From Escherichia coli (lineage in GTDB: Bacteria > Pseudomonadota > Gammaproteobacteria > Enterobacterales > Enterobacteriaceae): DNA of 54,484 nt. Numbering within the stretch: the first letter of the stretch is position 1; every line of letters starts with the position of its first letter. The position numbers and the translations under genes were made by a program. The notes beneath the pieces are model-generated. The model ran no database searches, had not been told where the DNA came from, and saw only the letters and a list, made by a program, of their open reading frames with translations. The stretch lies in the NCBI RefSeq assembly GCF_003334355.1, contig NZ_QOWP01000027.1. The stretch is one strand, 5' to 3'. Below are positions 1 through 50,428 of this stretch, piece after piece.

Positions 1-237
1 GAAGGTTGGGAAGATATAGAGGATTTTGGGGAAACACATCTCGATTTTTTGAAGCAATATGGTGATTTTGAAAATGGTATTCCTGTTCACGATACCATTG
101 CCAGAGTTGTATCCTGTATCAGTCCTGCAAAATTTCACGAGTGCTTTATTAACTGGATGCGTGACTGCCATTCATCAAATGACAAAGACGTCATCGCGAT
201 TGATGGAAAAGCACTTCCACACTCCTATGATAAAAGT
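1..237 (+). pseudogene. ISAs1-family (H-repeat-associated) transposase internal fragment, yafF-like remnant
   Basis: Frame +1 from the window edge reads ...[77 protein letters not shown], matching the middle of ISAs1-type transposases, then diverges and terminates; no N-terminus or C-terminal catalytic region present. Confidence 0.55.
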
Positions 238-302
238 GGTCGCAGGAGAGCGGGCTTTCGTAGTCTTCCCCGACTCTCCCCAGCCCTAAACACAACCCCC
301 AC

Positions 303-1073
303 TCACCGCAACCTAAACTCATCCGCATCCTGCCATGCCGGAAACTTTTCTCTATATTCCCGCAATGCCATCATCGACAGCTCCGCATCAATGCGCGTTG
401 CCTGATGCGCGTCGGCAGTAGCGATAATCTCGCCTTGTGGATTAATCACCCGGCTGTCACCGCGATAATGGCAGCCGTTGCCATCGCTGCCGACGCGATT
501 GCATCCCGCCACATACGCCTGATTCTCAATCGCGCGGGCCGTCAGCAATGCCTGCCAGTGCAGAGAGCGCGGAGCAGGCCAGTTGGCGACGTACAGGGCG
601 AGGTCATAATCGTTGAGATTGCGCGACCACACAGGAAAACGTAAGTCGTAGCACACCAGCGGCAAAATACGCCAGCCGCGCCATTCCACAATCACTCGCG
701 CATTGCCCGCTTTATAATGTAGATGCTCATCTGCCATGCGGAACAGATGACGCTTATCATAAAAATGTACCGTGCCGCCCGGCTCAACCAGCAAAAAGCG
801 GTTAACCGAACCAGACTCCGTTTGTAATGCAACACTGCCTGCAATCAGCGCATTGCACTGCTGCGCCTTAGCTGTCATCCAGTTCACTACGTCATCTTGT
901 GCTAGCGACGAAGCTGCCGCTTCCATGGCAAAGCCGCTGGTAAACATCTCCGGTAGAACGATCACATCGCGCCCGGTAATACCTTCCAGTTGACGATCAA
1001 AATGACGCAGGTTGGCAGGACCATCCATCCACACCAGTGGTTGCTGCAAAAGCGTAATCTTCAAACCAGGCAC
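303..1073 (-). CDS. yafV: C-N hydrolase (nitrilase superfamily) omega-amidase YafV
   Basis: 259-aa ORF with nitrilase-superfamily features (…LPEMFTSGF…, catalytic Cys context VCYDLRFP); probable GTG start at 1073, TTG at 1082 is the ORF-track start. Confidence 0.88.
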
Positions 1074-1226
1074 GGTGTACAACTCCTTTATGCGAAGGGT
1101 TTTATAACTTTAACACCTTATCAGGCAGTTGCCTTAGCGCAGAATAAATTGATAACAAATGCTGATATTGGAAATATCTGATTTGCAAATTATCGTGTTA
1201 TCGCCAGGCTTTAGGAGGTTAATAAC

Positions 1227-1700
1227 ATGGGCAGGATAAGCTCGGGAGGAATGATGTTTAAGGCAATAACGACAGTCGCCGCTCTGGTCATCGCCACCAG
1301 TGCAATGGCGCAGGATGATTTAACCATTAGCAGCCTTGCAAAGGGCGAAACCACCAAAGCTGCATTTAATCAGATGGTACAAGGGCATAAGCTGCCTGCC
1401 TGGGTGATGAAAGGCGGTACTTATACTCCCGCACAAACCGTAACGTTGGGAGATGAGACGTATCAGGTGATGAGCGCGTGCAAACCGCATGACTGTGGCT
1501 CGCAACGTATCGCTGTGATGTGGTCCGAGAAATCTAATCAGATGACGGGGCTGTTCTCGACTATTGATGAGAAAACGTCGCAAGAGAAACTCACCTGGCT
1601 GAATGTGAACGATGCGCTTTCGATTGATGGTAAAACGGTGTTGTTCGCGGCGTTGACCGGCAGCCTGGAAAACCATCCGGATGGCTTTAATTTTAAATAA
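1227..1700 (+). CDS. ivy: Inhibitor of vertebrate lysozyme (periplasmic)
   Basis: 157-aa ORF with signal peptide (…ALVIATSAMAQDD) and CKPHDCG loop motif typical of Ivy; ATG at 1227 preceded by AGGAGG. Confidence 0.9.
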   Translation: MGRISSGGMMFKAITTVAALVIATSAMAQDDLTISSLAKGETTKAAFNQMVQGHKLPAWVMKGGTYTPAQTVTLGDETYQVMSACKPHDCGSQRIAVMWSEKSNQMTGLFSTIDEKTSQEKLTWLNVNDALSIDGKTVLFAALTGSLENHPDGFNFK

Positions 1701-1742
1701 TTAGCGGATAAAGAAACGGAGCCTTTCGGCTCCGTTATTCAT

Positions 1743-4187
1743 TTACGCGGCTTCAACTTTCCGCACTTTCTCCGGCAACTTTACCGGCTTCGTCGCCAGC
1801 TCTTCCGGATCAAAGTCATCAACGTTAATACTGCGCAGACGGCTTTCTTCAGCTTTCACCAGAATAGCGGCTTCATCTTTATCAATCAGCCCCTTCACCA
1901 GCGCGTTGTGCGCCAGTTCATCCAGACGGGTAAACGGCAGGTTTTTACCCAGCTCTTTACAGATCCGCTGATGAATTGGGTCGGCGGCAATCACATCCAC
2001 CAGCGCCTCTTCCAGCAAGCCAACCGGATTATGCTCGCTCGGCGTCAGGTACTGACCGCGACCAATGCGGGAACGGGTGGCGTTCGGCACTTGTAAAATC
2101 TTCGCCACTTTATGATCCAGCTTGTCAGAAGGTGCCAGATAATGACGTCCGGTCGGGAAGATCACCACATTCAGCAGCCCGGCAACCACGCGGTTCGGGA
2201 AGTTTTGCAGTAAATCATCCATCGCCTGTTCAGCCTGATACAGCGCATCTTGTACGCCCCAGTGCACCAGCGGCAGGTCGGCTTCATTACGGCCTTCGTC
2301 GTCATAACGCTTCAGCACGGCAGAGGCGAGGTAGAGCTGGCTTAAAATATCCCCCAGACGGGCCGAGATGCGCTCGCGACGTTTCAGGCTGCCGCCCAGC
2401 ACAGCCATCGAGACATCAGAAAGCAGGGCGAGGTTGGCGCTCAGGCGGTTCAGGTGCTGATAGTAGCGTTTAGTGGCATCGCCGGTTGGCGTGCTGCTGG
2501 TTAAACCGCGCGTCAGGCCCAGCCAGAAGCTGCGAACTTTGTTGCTACCGACGTGACCGATATGTTTGAACAACAGTTTATCGAACGCGTTGACGTCATT
2601 GTTCTTCGCCGCTTCCATCTCTTCCAGCACGTACGGATGGCAACGAATCGCTCCTTGTCCGAAGATCATCATGCTGCGGGTCAGAATGTTAGCCCCTTCA
2701 ACGGTGATGGCAATCGGTGCGCCCTGGTAAGCACGCGCCAGGAAGTTGCTTTGCCCGAGCATAATGCCTTTACCGCCGGTAATATCCATCGCATCAATAA
2801 TCGACTGCTGCCCGCGGTGGGTACAGTGATACTTAACGATAGCCGACAGCACGGCAGGTTTTTCGCCGAGCATAATGCCGTAGGTAATCAGCGATGCCGC
2901 AGCATCCATCACGTAGGCATTACCGGCAATACGCGCCAGCGGCTCTTCAATCCCTTCCATCTTACCAATAGAGATTTTGAACTGACGGCGAATGTGAGCA
3001 TACGCGCCGGTTGCCAGCGCTACCGATTTCACGCCGCCGGTTGAGTTGGAAGGCAGGGTGATGCCGCGGCCTACCGAGAGGCACTCCACCAGCATCCGCC
3101 AGCCTTGCCCGGCCATTTTCGGCCCGCCGATGATGTAATCGATCGGCACGAAGACATCTTTACCGCGCGTCGGTCCGTTCTGGAACGGTACGTTCAGCGG
3201 GAAGTGGCGACGACCAATTTCCACGCCCGGCGTGGTGGTTGGGATCAGCGCACAGGTAATGCCTAAATCTTCTGCACCGCCGAGTAATTTTTCCGGGTCG
3301 GAGAGTTTAAACGCCAGCCCAAGCACGGTCGCAATCGGTGCCAGCGTAATGTAGCGTTTGTTCCAGGTCAGACGCATCCCCAGCACCTGCTGGCCCTGCC
3401 ATTCGCCCATGCAGACAATCCCGGTGTCCGGAATCGCGCCCGCATCGGAACCCGCTTCCGGGCTGGTCAGTGCAAAGCAGGGGATCTCCTGACCACGCGC
3501 CAGACGCGGCAGATAGTGATCTTTCTGCTCGTCAGTGCCGTAATGTTGCAACAGTTCGCCCGGGCCTAATGAGTTCGGCACGCCGACGGTAATCGCCAGG
3601 ATCCCGCTCACGCCGGAGAGTTTTTGCAGCACGCGAGACTGGGCATAAGCTGAGAACTCCAGTCCGCCGTACTCTTTTTTGATAATCATCGCGAAGAAGC
3701 GATGCTCTTTAAGGTACGCCCACAACTCCGGCGGCAGATCCGCCAGCTCATGAGTAATCTGGAAATCATTCGCCATCCGGCAGGCTTCTTCTACCGGGCC
3801 GTCGAGAAACGCTTGCTCTTCGGCGGTCAGGCGCGGCTGCGGATAGTTATGCAGCTTTTTCCAGTCCGGCTTGCCCTGGAACAAGTCGCCCTCCCACCAG
3901 GTGGTGCCCGCATTAATCGCTTCTTTCTCAGTGCGCGACATCGGCGGCATCACCTTACGGAAACCGCGAAATACCGGCGCGGAAATCATCGACTTACGCA
4001 TAGGCGCAAAGTTAAATGGCACGAGGATAATGGCCAGAGGCACCAGTACCCACGCCGACCACAGACCAGCAACGCCGAGGGCGGCTGTCCAGGCGAGCAA
4101 AATCAGACTGCTGATAAATAAGCTCACGCGGTGATAGAACAACGCGCCGAGCAGGACAACCGTAGCGAGAATACTCAAAATCATCAT
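1743..4187 (-). CDS. fadE: Acyl-CoA dehydrogenase FadE
   Basis: Long ORF (track 840 aa); N-terminal membrane segment [17 protein letters not shown]… then acyl-CoA dehydrogenase domains; start placed at internal ATG (4185-4187) giving 814 aa. Confidence 0.9.
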
Positions 4188-4426
4188 AACGAAAAGCCCC
4201 TTACTTGTAGGAGGTCTGACCACTTGTGATGATATGGTTGTAGTGGATGTAAAAACATTTAGCAATGTGTTTACAATATAATTACAACAAAGCTCACATT
4301 GTTGCTGTTTTTATCCGCACTTCAGGTCAAAAAGTCCTGGTCATAGCACCTGCCCGTACTTCTCGCTTTTGGCGGTATCCGGTACACTGCATTTTGTCTA
4401 TTACATTTATGCTGAAGGATATCCTC

Positions 4427-5005
4427 ATGTACCAGGATCTTATTCGTAACGAACTGAACGAAGCGGCGGAAACGCTGGCTAACTTTTTAAAAGATGACGC
4501 CAATATTCACGCCATTCAGCGCGCGGCGGTCCTGTTAGCAGACAGCTTTAAAGCCGGTGGCAAAGTGCTTTCCTGCGGCAACGGCGGTTCCCATTGCGAC
4601 GCTATGCACTTTGCCGAAGAGTTGACCGGTCGCTACCGTGAAAACCGTCCGGGCTACCCGGCGATTGCTATTTCTGACGTTAGTCATATTTCCTGCGTCG
4701 GTAATGATTTCGGTTTCAATGATATTTTCTCCCGCTACGTTGAAGCGGTAGGTCGCGAAGGCGATGTACTGCTGGGGATCTCCACCTCCGGTAACTCTGC
4801 AAACGTGATCAAAGCGATCGCAGCGGCGCGTGAGAAGGGGATGAAAGTGATCACCCTGACCGGTAAAGACGGCGGCAAAATGGCTGGCACGGCGGATATC
4901 GAAATTCGCGTACCGCACTTTGGTTATGCCGACCGCATTCAGGAGATTCACATTAAAGTGATCCATATCCTGATCCAGTTAATTGAAAAAGAGATGGTTA
5001 AGTAA
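4427..5005 (+). CDS. gmhA: Sedoheptulose-7-phosphate isomerase (SIS domain)
   Basis: 192 aa from ATG at 4427 ([17 protein letters not shown]…), SIS-domain motifs ([28 protein letters not shown]); upstream part of the track ORF is non-coding leader. Confidence 0.92.
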
Positions 5006-47139: not shown

Positions 47140-48195
47140 ATGCGTAAAATCATTCATGTGGATATGGACTGCTTTTTCGCCGCAGTGGAGATGCGCGACA
47201 ATCCCGCCCTGCGCGATATCCCTATTGCTATTGGCGGCAGCCGCGAACGTCGGGGGGTGATCAGCACCGCCAATTATCCCGCGCGTAAATTTGGCGTACG
47301 TAGCGCTATGCCGACAGGGATGGCGCTCAAATTATGCCCGCATCTCACCTTGCTTCCGGGGCGCTTTGACGCCTACAAAGAAGCCTCAAATCATATCCGC
47401 GAAATCTTCTCGCGCTACACCTCGCGTATTGAACCGTTGTCACTGGATGAGGCTTATCTCGACGTCACCGATAGCGTCCATTGCCACGGTTCTGCGACCC
47501 TCATCGCCCAGGAAATCCGCCAGACGATTTTCAACGAGCTGCAACTGACGGCGTCTGCGGGCGTGGCACCCGTAAAGTTTCTCGCCAAAATCGCCTCCGA
47601 CATGAATAAACCCAACGGCCAGTTTGTGATTACGCCGGCAGAAGTTCCGGCATTTTTACAAACCTTACCACTGGCAAAAATCCCCGGCGTCGGCAAAGTC
47701 TCGGCGGCAAAACTGGAAGCGATGGGGCTACGAACCTGCGGTGATGTACAAAAGTGTGATCTGGTGATGCTGCTTAAACGCTTTGGCAAATTTGGCCGCA
47801 TTTTGTGGGAGCGTAGTCAGGGGATTGACGAGCGCGACGTTAACAGCGAACGGTTGCGAAAATCCGTCGGCGTGGAACGCACGATGGCGGAAGATATCCA
47901 CCACTGGTCTGAATGTGAAGCGATTATCGAGCGGCTGTATCCGGAACTTGAACGCCGTCTGGCAAAGGTAAAACCTGATTTACTGATTGCCCGCCAGGGG
48001 GTGAAATTAAAGTTCGACGATTTTCAGCAAACCACTCAGGAGCACGTCTGGCCGCGGCTGAATAAAGCTGACTTAATCGCCACCGCGCGTAAAACCTGGG
48101 ATGAACGCCGCGGCGGGCGCGGTGTGCGACTGGTGGGGCTGCATGTGACGTTGCTTGATCCGCAAATGGAAAGACAACTGGTGCTGGGATTATGA
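47140..48195 (+). CDS. dinB: DNA polymerase IV (Y-family)
   Basis: 351 aa starting [22 protein letters not shown]… (Y-family catalytic DMDCFFA motif). Confidence 0.95.
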
Positions 48196-48246: not shown

Positions 48247-48540
48247 ATGCATCGAATTCTCGCTGAAAAATCGGTCAATATTACTGAGTTACGTAAAAAC
48301 CCAGCTAAATACTTTATTGATCAACCGGTTGCGGTTCTTTCTAATAATCGCCCCGCAGGATATCTCTTAAGTGCCAGCGCATTCGAAGCGTTAATGGACA
48401 TGCTTGCTGAACAAGAGGAGAAAAAGCCCATAAAGGCGCGCTTCCGTCCAAGTGCTGCAAGATTAGAGGAAATTACACGCCGAGCTGAAAAATATCTTAA
48501 TGATATGACGGATGATGATTTCAATGACTTTAAGGAATAA
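48247..48540 (+). CDS. yafN: Antitoxin YafN (Phd/YefM family)
   Basis: 97-aa ORF immediately upstream of yafO in dinB operon. Confidence 0.88.
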   Translation: MHRILAEKSVNITELRKNPAKYFIDQPVAVLSNNRPAGYLLSASAFEALMDMLAEQEEKKPIKARFRPSAARLEEITRRAEKYLNDMTDDDFNDFKE

Positions 48541-48542
48541 GG

Positions 48543-48941
48543 ATGCGGGTATTCAAAACAAAACTTATTCGCCTGCAACTTACAGCAGAGGAACTTGATG
48601 CGTTAACGGCGGATTTTATTTCCTATAAGCGTGACGGTGTTTTGCCAGATATATTTGGTCGCGATGCACTCTACGACGACTCGTTTACCTGGCCATTAAT
48701 CAAATTTGAGCGAGTTGCTCATATTCATCTGGCAAATGTGAATAATCCATTTCCGCCACAGTTGCGCCAATTCAGCAGAACGAATGACGAAGCGCATTTG
48801 GTATATTGTCAGGGTGCGTTTGATGAGCAAGCATGGTTGCTCATTGCCATTCTGAAACCTGAACCTCATAAACAGGCTCGAGATAACAACCAAATGCATA
48901 AAATTGGGAAAATGGCAGAAGCGTTTCGCATGCGTTTTTGA
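48543..48941 (+). CDS. yafO: Toxin YafO (ribosome-dependent mRNA interferase)
   Basis: 132-aa ORF, 2 nt after yafN stop. Confidence 0.88.
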   Translation: MRVFKTKLIRLQLTAEELDALTADFISYKRDGVLPDIFGRDALYDDSFTWPLIKFERVAHIHLANVNNPFPPQLRQFSRTNDEAHLVYCQGAFDEQAWLLIAILKPEPHKQARDNNQMHKIGKMAEAFRMRF

Positions 48942-48950
48942 ATTTATATT

Positions 48951-49403
48951 ATGAATAACATACAAATAAGAGACTATCAGCCTGGCGATTTTCAGCAACT
49001 ATGCGCTATTTTCATTAGAGCGGTTACGATGATCTCCAGTCAGCATTATTCACCACAACAAATTGCCGCCTGGGCGCAGATTGACGAATCTCGCTGGAAG
49101 GAGAAACTCGCGAAATCACAAGTGCGGGTTGCCGTCATTAATGCACAACCGGTTGGTTTTATTACCTGCGTTGAACGTTATATCGATATGTTATTTGTTG
49201 ACCCTGAATACACCCGCCGCGGGGTTGCCTGCGCTTTGTTAAAACCTTTGATTAAGTCTGAATCCGAACTTACGGTGGACGCCAGCATAACCGCAAAACC
49301 CTTTTTTGAACGTTATGGTTTTCAGACAGTTAAGCAGCAGCGCGTTGAATGCCGGGGAACGTGGTTTACTAATTTTTATATGCGATATAAACCGCAATAT
49401 TAA
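48951..49403 (+). CDS. yafP: GNAT-family N-acetyltransferase YafP
   Basis: 150 aa with GNAT acetyl-CoA-binding signature (…RRGVACALLKPL…). Confidence 0.88.
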   Translation: MNNIQIRDYQPGDFQQLCAIFIRAVTMISSQHYSPQQIAAWAQIDESRWKEKLAKSQVRVAVINAQPVGFITCVERYIDMLFVDPEYTRRGVACALLKPLIKSESELTVDASITAKPFFERYGFQTVKQQRVECRGTWFTNFYMRYKPQY

Positions 49404-49636
49404 ATCCAGCTTGCAATGAAAATAACGCCCGCCTGGTATGTGCGCGTTTTCTTATTCCACAAACTGCAAGGAGGTAAATCATGACAAATCCTTTATCAAT
49501 GACTCTTTGCAGACCTTTCCAGGATTAATTCTTTTTTTCTTGCCCTGGATTCGTCTGCCATTTCCTGATTTTTATATTTATATACTCTAAATAATTCGAG
49601 TCGCAGTACATGCAACTTGAAGTATGACGAGTATAA

Positions 49637-49903
49637 ATGGAATGGTACATGGGCAAATATATTCGTCCCTTATCCGATGCGGTATTTACCATCGCATCTG
49701 ATGACCTGTGGATCGAGAGTTTAGCGATCCAACAATTACACACCACGGCAAATTTACCCAACATGCAGCGCGTAGTGGGGATGCCAGATTTACACCCCGG
49801 ACGCGGCTACCCGATTGGCGCAGCGTTCTTCTCTGTTGGTCGTTTTTACCCGACAAGACGTCGCTGTAACGGTGCTGGAAACAGAAACGGGCCGCTACTC
49901 TGA
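49637..49903 (+). pseudogene. RtcB-family RNA ligase 5' fragment (ykfJ-like remnant)
   Basis: First about 66 residues match RtcB N-terminus including …[21 protein letters not shown]…; reading frame then degenerates and stops after 88 codons. Confidence 0.7.
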
Positions 49904-50372
49904 CACGCTGCGTTCGGCGCTGGTTTCTCTGGATGGCGATAACGCATGGGCATTAAGCGAAAGCTGGTGTGGCACTATTCAGTGGATTTGTCCGAGTCCG
50001 TATCGGCCTCATCATGGGCGCAAAAACTGGTTTCTGGGCATTGGGCGTTTTACCGCTGATGAGAAGGAACAATCGGATGCAATCCGTTATGAGACGCTGC
50101 GTTCGTCGGGGCCGGGCGGTCAACATGTCAATAAAACCGACTCGGCGGTACGCGCCACGCATCTGGCATCCGGTATTAGCGTGAAGGTTCAGTCAGAGCG
50201 CAGCCAGCATGCTAACAAACGGCTGGCGCGATTGCTGATTGCCTGGAAGCTGGAGCAGCAGCAACAGGAAAATAGCGCGGCGCTGAAATCGCAGCGGCGA
50301 ATGTTCCATCACCAGATTGAACGTGGCAACCCGCGACGGACATTTACAGGGATGGCTTTTATCGAAGGATAA
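49815..50372 (+). pseudogene. prfH: Peptide chain release factor homologue PrfH, 5'-truncated
   Basis: C-terminal GGQ domain present (…[26 protein letters not shown]…) but N-terminal part missing; no proper start context; overlaps RtcB fragment. Confidence 0.75.
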
Positions 50373-50428
50373 TGAAGGATGAAACTGCCGGAAGGCGATT
50401 AAACGCCATCCGGCAGCAAATCAAATAA

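Follow-up and report, generated by a model that had tools for sequence, protein, structure and literature searches.

What remains of the rtcB2-prfH ribosome rescue and repair operon at a chromosomal site where only pieces of its two genes are found, and can that remainder still act? Published biochemistry assigns the products of the intact operon successive tasks: PrfH frees the peptide once a ribosome has suffered a cut in the decoding centre of its 16S rRNA (by colicin E3, for example), and RtcB2 religates the cut 16S rRNA after PrfH release. The intact operon of strain ATCC 25922 protects against colicin E3 (PMC9223846).

The stretch analysed here (the window, 54,484 nucleotides) is Escherichia coli chromosome, 99.976% identical to strain PSS-12 over 50 kb. 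The 12 substitutions between the two all lie within 5607-46831, mostly in Flag-2 genes; none breaks a reading frame, and none falls between dinB and the remnant. ET670 was considered as the near-identical relative and rejected, since its match is 100% identical but lacks Flag-2; PSS-12 is the true near-identical genome. Genes are arranged in the following order.

9242 to 47069: Flag-2 cluster, flhA to lafU
47140-48195: dinB
48247-48941: yafN and yafO
ending at 49403: yafP
then the rtcB2-prfH remnant
50429-51886, minus strand: pepD
then gpt

Salmonella, Kosakonia, and Cronobacter have the same order, dinB-rtcB2-prfH-pepD, which marks the operon as ancestral here.

Four features make up the remnant itself.

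49649..49852, plus strand: rtcB2 5' fragment (ykfJ in K-12), codons 1-68, from NCBIfam models and the CFT073 alignment
49847..49852, plus strand: deletion junction, 6-bp microhomology TACCCG, from alignment to intact operons
49853..49903, plus strand: out-of-frame rtcB2 tail, 16 codons and then TGA (49901-49903), from the open reading frame 49637..49903
49848..50372, plus strand: prfH 3' fragment, codons 31-204 and the TAA stop, from TIGR03072 and the CFT073 alignment

The first-pass annotation had read 49637-50372 as a 5' fragment of an RtcB-family gene running into a 5'-truncated prfH that keeps its GGQ motif. Family models name the same two genes, RtcB2 and PrfH, and the span is essentially right, except that rtcB2 starts at ATG 49649, the start used by PGAP; the upstream ATG at 49637 is ACG in several intact alleles. 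Residues 1-68 of the rtcB2 stub align with the first 68 positions of NF007153, a model of 379 positions (E 1.5e-30), and with positions 1-57 of TIGR03073, 'release_rtcB' (E 2.9e-28). Its score of 106 bits lies below the 407-bit full-length cut-off through truncation only, 68 of 379 residues being left, and its identity to CFT073 rtcB2 nt 1-204 is 99.1%. The stub retains one 13-residue motif. Absent are the Asp/Cys motif NDIGCG, the His motifs GGGNHF and HSGSRG, and the nucleotidyl-His region AHGAGR, all of which lie past residue 68 in alignment to Thermus thermophilus RtcB (2EPG); the full-length protein, with its metal-binding Asp/Cys and His positions and its nucleotidylated His, is thus not encoded. 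Directly adjoining it is the sequence of its operon neighbour, prfH. PGAP flags the identical rtcB2 stretch as a pseudogene, 'missing C-terminus'.

The prfH stump (172 aa, 49854-50369) covers positions 32-200 of the 200 in TIGR03072, 'release_prfH', at 275.4 bits, above the curated cut-off of 166.65 bits. It keeps SGPGGQHVN, with GGQ at 50115-50123, and is 96.8% identical to CFT073 prfH; full-length PrfH is chain 8 of PDB 7SA4. In PSS-12, PGAP flags this stump too as a pseudogene, 'missing N-terminus'.

Alignment to intact operons, the check proposed by the first-pass annotation, maps the junction. Breakpoints were set against the intact CFT073 and AL.H8 operons; for the comparison of arms among alleles, each arm was aligned by coordinates, global MAFFT having misplaced the left one. 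In CFT073, rtcB2 (379 aa) and prfH (204 aa) have overlapping stop and start codons. Window 49633-49852 corresponds to positions 2760-2979 of the CFT073 operon sequence (L001), and window 49847-50500 to positions 4001-4654, so that 1,027 bp are missing. TACCCG occurs twice in intact operons (rtcB2 nt 199-204; prfH nt 90-95) and once in the window. From the rtcB2 ATG to the prfH stop there are 1751 nt in the 11 intact alleles and 724 nt in the four deleted ones. Gone with the deletion are RtcB2 codons 69-379, PrfH codons 1-30, and the ATGA stop/start overlap.

The figure 1,027 does not divide by three, which leaves the two stumps in different frames (prfH is in +1 relative to rtcB), and no fusion protein is encoded. 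The description of the locus as a fused remnant therefore holds for the DNA, in which the fragments abut, and fails for the protein. The prfH N-terminus and the start codon whose overlap with the rtcB2 stop provided translational coupling lay inside the deleted 1,027 bp. A replacement that would allow the prfH stump to be translated was sought, whether a start in its own frame or a restart codon beyond the stop of the rtcB frame, and none was found: sequence and open reading frame list hold no in-frame ATG before residue ~180, and no Shine-Dalgarno sequence precedes GTG 49872 (the start of the 166-aa K-12 annotation) or TTG 49815.

With high confidence we read the region as a dead remnant of the chromosomal rtcB2-prfH operon, the same allele as K-12 ykfJ/prfH (b0235/b0236). 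The proposed course of events is simple. A single 1,027-bp deletion between the two TACCCG copies would have removed 82% of rtcB2, including every catalytic motif, together with the overlapping stop/start junction and the first 30 prfH codons. The normal start would then yield at most an 84-aa peptide, RtcB2(1-68) plus 16 residues. Since the stumps lie in different frames and the prfH stump has no start that could be used, the module should confer no protection, a prediction that draws also on published K-12 phenotypes; the regulatory leader upstream survives intact. Three points count against the dead-remnant reading. The prfH stump is an open frame that scores above its family cut-off; pN/pS among deleted alleles is only 0.10 (0.06 among intact ones), which by itself would point to constraint; and 4-azaleucine reportedly induces K-12 ykfJ (PMC3516279), which implies transcription of the remnant.

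How does this allele relate to that of K-12? A deletion of the same kind had been recognized there by the first-pass annotation, and the likeness proves closer still: K-12 aligns to window 49599-50500 at 98.7% identity over 902 bp, and because that alignment crosses the junction ungapped, the breakpoints are identical. K-12, O157:H7, and three other deleted alleles all share them. The K-12 pair ykfJ (b0235) and prfH (b0236) also has the out-of-frame layout of the window and its position, dinB-yafNOP-[remnant]-pepD-gpt. The two differ in the first base after the microhomology (49853), which is G (rtcB-like) in K-12 and A (prfH-like) in the window; in the upstream ERIC element, full-length in K-12 and short in the window; in 11 substitutions in the prfH arm; and in Flag-2, which K-12 has lost, whereas the window's remnant is linked to an intact cluster.

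A 61-nt junction probe, which intact operons cannot match at the chosen E-value, gives a junction match in 49.6% of complete E. coli genomes (2,689 of 5,426), K-12 and O157:H7 among them; the exact 61-mer of the window occurs in 727 records. The deletion allele is found on several haplotype backgrounds, and with its wide spread this fits an old polymorphism. The remnant is an already known, common feature: some 1,000 nt were reported missing from K-12 MG1655, W3110, O157 Sakai, and EDL933 relative to CFT073, 042, and UTI89 (PMC1586002), the deletion was published in 2006, and PGAP flags it routinely. The remnant itself accordingly carries little weight, as a re-identification of a pseudogene pair described in 2006.

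Its consequences can be read against the intact module (ATCC 25922, CFT073; PDB 7SA4). The locus and leader are common to both, as are the first 68 RtcB2 codons and the last 174 PrfH codons (97-99% identity). The intact module has in addition RtcB2 residues 69-379, PrfH residues 1-30, and the ATGA overlap. The window has none of these, so the published colicin-E3 protection (PMC9223846, PMC9304027, PMC13166195) is not to be expected here. RtcB2 and PrfH of K-12 have been called 'presumably inactive' (PMC9304027); K-12 strain BW25113 is sensitive to colicin E3, and knockouts of its stumps are without effect (PMC9223846). By analogy with BW25113, the one strain in which the loss is demonstrated (PMC9223846), we infer that the window's strain has lost colicin-E3 protection. 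Like K-12 and O157:H7, it should be without the defence that RtcB2-PrfH gives against ribotoxins of the decoding centre, colicin E3 being one example.

The locus had been called old and decayed. Old fits the wide spread; decay amounts to the one deletion. Beyond it the window contains no stop, no frameshift, and no private change in the rtcB2 arm, and the prfH arm carries two private substitutions, one synonymous and the other Q103K. Deleted alleles diverge from one another as much as intact alleles do, mostly at synonymous sites, and most arm variants are common to deleted and intact alleles. This shared variation implies that the arms have exchanged sequence with intact alleles, and the age of the deletion is unreadable from divergence; an attempt to date it by arm divergence failed for that reason. 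A pN/pS test for relaxed selection (0.10 among deleted alleles, 0.06 among intact alleles) failed likewise, because the polymorphism is mostly shared and private changes are too few. Private variants of deleted alleles number 10 synonymous to 10 non-synonymous, as compared with 34 to 16 for intact-allele singletons.

Could the truncated prfH nonetheless still work, as a GGQ protein of ~166-174 aa placed under a surviving stalling-responsive leader and kept by selection? Its frame is open to the natural stop with GGQ intact, the leader is preserved, K-12 ykfJ can be induced (PMC3516279), the allele persists in about half of the species, and the pN/pS of 0.10 would, taken alone, suggest continuing constraint. 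That low value, however, is largely inherited, since most stump variation is common to intact alleles, and the private variants run even at 10:10. The stump has neither ATG nor Shine-Dalgarno sequence; translation in the rtcB frame would stop 50 nt beyond the junction, where no restart codon is close by. The residues lost include a central β-strand of domain 2 (authors' reply, PMC1586002), GGQ itself has been lost in several lineages by a second deletion, and the BW25113 knockouts have no colicin-E3 phenotype (PMC9223846). A working prfH is thus most improbable, and a dead remnant remains the preferred reading.

Whether the deletion arose once is a separate matter. Deleted alleles differ within window 49849-49853: the window, O157, and DETEC-C31 read TACCCG-A; K-12 and ESBLEC_MG32 read TACCCG-G; and Ec-042-T20-MAC reads TATCCG-G. 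Each state matches one parental sequence, A after the repeat being that of the prfH parent and G that of the rtcB parent, and TATCCG is found in AL.H8-type intact rtcB2. Recurrent deletion, conversion, or simple transitions could each produce such variants. Were the first the case, the window's deletion would not be identical by descent with that of K-12, the same microhomology having been used repeatedly on different haplotypes. Besides the parental states, this would suit the split of exact 61-mer records into 367 (A), 727 (A and the window's T), and 899 (G), and the sharing of arm polymorphisms with different intact alleles. Yet all 2,689 genomes share one pair of breakpoints, and the repeat is a weak hotspot: only 6 bp (9 bp with one mismatch), its copies 1 kb apart, and weaker still in AL.H8-type haplotypes (TATCCGGCA versus TGCCCGACA). 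Left arms of 204 bp are identical in four deleted alleles, and a single event, followed by one transition and ordinary homologous recombination in the flanks, explains the data. We regard recurrence as unlikely and retain a single deletion shared with K-12.

Other observations concern the prfH arm. A second deletion, of 169 bp (equivalent to window 50038-50206), removes GGQ from the prfH stump in Ec-042-T20-MAC (L006) and ESBLEC_MG32 (L007), and spans that fit it occur in about 6 of 59 sampled genomes; this is as expected for a gene no longer selected. The prfH arm of DETEC-C31 (L009; equivalent to window 49853-50372) differs at 32-39 of 520 nt (~6-7%) from every other allele examined, its rtcB2 arm being identical to that of the window; by its divergence, this prfH arm looks like an import from an unsampled, divergent lineage.

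The remnant had also been set against a neighbouring Flag-2 island said to be intact. At the level of reading frames it is: all 42 coding sequences, flhA (9242) through lafU (47069), run uninterrupted from a start codon to a stop codon, and the near-identical PSS-12 record carries no pseudogene flags in Flag-2. The contrast holds in the window and is not surprising. In a rank-stratified sample of 59 genomes, classed by matched span and annotated features with six cases verified, all four combinations occur.

Flag-2 present, operon deleted: 4 of 59 genomes
Flag-2 present, operon intact: 10 of 59 genomes
Flag-2 absent, operon deleted: 25 of 59 genomes
Flag-2 absent, operon intact: 20 of 59 genomes

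The window's combination is therefore ordinary; the idea that it is unusual was rejected, as it makes up ~7% of the ranked sample.

What survives upstream is more informative. The yafP-rtcB2 spacer is 245 bp long, of which ~150 bp scarcely vary among 13 E. coli alleles: K-12 has one substitution, a T-run differs in length, and there are no other differences. It contains the following elements.

49411..49439, plus strand: putative promoter-like element, read from the sequence
49464..49565, plus strand: alternative-helix region, from the RNAalifold consensus
49464-49471: leader segment 1, CUGCAAGG, which includes the Shine-Dalgarno sequence of the uORF
49482..49529, plus strand: uORF of 15 codons, MTNPLSMTLCRPFQD and a stop, from its conserved length, Shine-Dalgarno sequence, and core
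49505-49514: leader segment 2, CUUUGCAGAC, uORF codons 8-11
49518-49523 with 49544-49549: inner hairpin UCCAGG/CCUGGA
49553-49565: leader segment 3, GUCUGCCAUUUCC
49576..49632, no strand assigned: short-form ERIC (enterobacterial repetitive intergenic consensus), from allele alignments
49639..49651, plus strand: leader segment 4, GGAAUGGUACAUG, the rtcB2 ribosome-binding region and start codon, predicted to pair with segment 3

The promoter-like element comprises a -35 hexamer TTGCAA (49411-49416), a 17-nt spacer, and a -10-like TGGTAT (49434-49439). Its position and spacing are kept in Escherichia, Klebsiella, Citrobacter, and an Enterobacteriaceae MAG; every intact allele has TAGTAT or TAATAT as its -10-like hexamer, and other genera have TAnTAT. 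Scanning the window and CFT073 for consensus promoters and terminators gave nothing useful, the element falling below threshold. At 49435, five of six deleted alleles carry an A-to-G change (TAGTAT to TGGTAT), as against none of the 11 intact Escherichia ones; the SNP could have hitchhiked or could weaken the promoter. Promoter decay is not claimed, because K-12 carries the change and its ykfJ is reported to be inducible.

The uORF has a strong Shine-Dalgarno sequence, AAGGAGGT, at 49468-49475. Its length (13-16 codons), Shine-Dalgarno sequence, and (T/S/A)LCR core are kept in 12 genera; uORFs of this length and with this core lie 5' of rtcB2 in Salmonella, Citrobacter, Klebsiella, Kosakonia, Cronobacter, Limnobaculum, Pragia, Providencia, and Pseudomonas. 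The P. aeruginosa version, MIQFSTLCRLRLA, lies 254 nt ahead of the RtcB-like gene. With Q3 and F4, it matches the published 13-aa PA5471.1 (PMC13041342, PMC3516279), which makes the E. coli uORF a homologue of PA5471.1; the two peptides share the TLCR core and a GCAAAGGAGG Shine-Dalgarno context. PA5471.1 couples expression of armZ-PA5470(prfH) to ribosome stalling (PMC13041342, PMC12057347, PMC3516279), and the pair it precedes, armZ (PA5471, RtcB-like) and PA5470 (prfH), is that of E. coli.

Three helices can be drawn within the leader. Judged on only 12 sequences (12 genera; single-sequence fold z-score -1.6), helix 1:2, in which the uORF Shine-Dalgarno sequence pairs with codons 8-11, is 95.8% paired and invariant; helix 2:3, the other pairing of segment 2, is 100% paired with two compensatory pairs, and its score is reached by none of 500 shuffles; and the predicted helix 3:4, which covers the rtcB2 ribosome-binding site and AUG, is 83% paired with two compensatory pairs. 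Such alternatives would permit an erm-like switch, in which early ribosome stalling on the uORF makes segment 2 available to segment 3 and thereby exposes the rtcB2 start. The Pseudomonas leader has the segment 2, 3, and 4 sequences in common with that of E. coli; it lies ~250 nt upstream and is described as a transcription attenuator, and ArmZ there has an acquired anti-MexZ role (PMC12057347). In E. coli, segment 4 holds the rtcB2 ribosome-binding site and AUG, an arrangement that suggests translational control.

We found no description of the rtcB2 leader in E. coli in the searchable literature. An enterobacterial leader peptide and RNA switch ahead of rtcB2-prfH would offer a testable account of stalling-induced ribosome repair in E. 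coli, and would explain the reported 4-azaleucine inducibility of K-12 ykfJ (PMC3516279). In the window, unlike the PA5471.1 operon, the genes under the leader are destroyed: the sensor is intact, and what it controlled is gone. A leader of the PA5471.1 type might still activate the locus at stalling, in transcription and translation alike, with selection acting on the truncated GGQ protein or the 84-aa RtcB2 stub. Such a non-inert remnant would explain why about half of E. coli keep the exact allele with an open prfH frame; we consider it highly unlikely, and continue to read the genes as dead beneath a preserved leader.

The short ERIC lies between leader segments 3 and 4, in the loop of helix 3:4. 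AL.H8-type intact alleles have the same short form as the window; K-12, O157, and ETEC6334 carry a full-length element (+72 bp) at this site; and CFT073, M172-1, and FDAARGOS_1295 have none. The additional 72 bp in K-12 and O157 contain GTGAATCCCCAGGAGCTTACAT and AAGTAAGTGACTGGGGTGA(A/G)CG, which we take to be the ERIC-PCR primer sites; the primer pair is confirmed as in use. Part of the element matches elsewhere in a genome without the rtcB2-prfH locus (H30). Rfam returned only sub-threshold matches, among them a partial isrH at 49571-49637, which was rejected: the fragment is the ERIC repeat and the match sub-threshold. An ERIC-like insert occupies the same spot in Klebsiella spallanzanii (L021).

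At the other end of the operon, one further element separates the convergent prfH and pepD.

50385..50416: inverted repeat, CTGCCGGA...TCCGGCAG, read from the sequence

It shows no variation in any allele. The terminator scanner left it uncalled for want of a T-run; it is probably a transcript end shared by prfH and pepD.

The yafN-yafO toxin-antitoxin pair, present in the window and K-12, is missing in CFT073, AL.H8, 05-3629, DETEC-C31, and others, where dinB directly overlaps yafP; it is a third independent presence/absence polymorphism at the rtcB2-prfH locus. In Intestinirhabdus alba (L029), prfH is called as two pieces of 144 and 61 aa, and the leader is split by ~180 bp inserted after the uORF and ahead of segment 3; here, in a different genus, the operon seems to have decayed independently. 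Finally, two database proteins, P0003 (522 aa) and P0039 (583 aa), carry RtcB (PF01139) and RF-1 (PF00472) in one chain, with 83-96% identity to E. coli RtcB2. Natural in-frame fusion of RtcB2 to PrfH, or else a frameshift artefact, may account for them.
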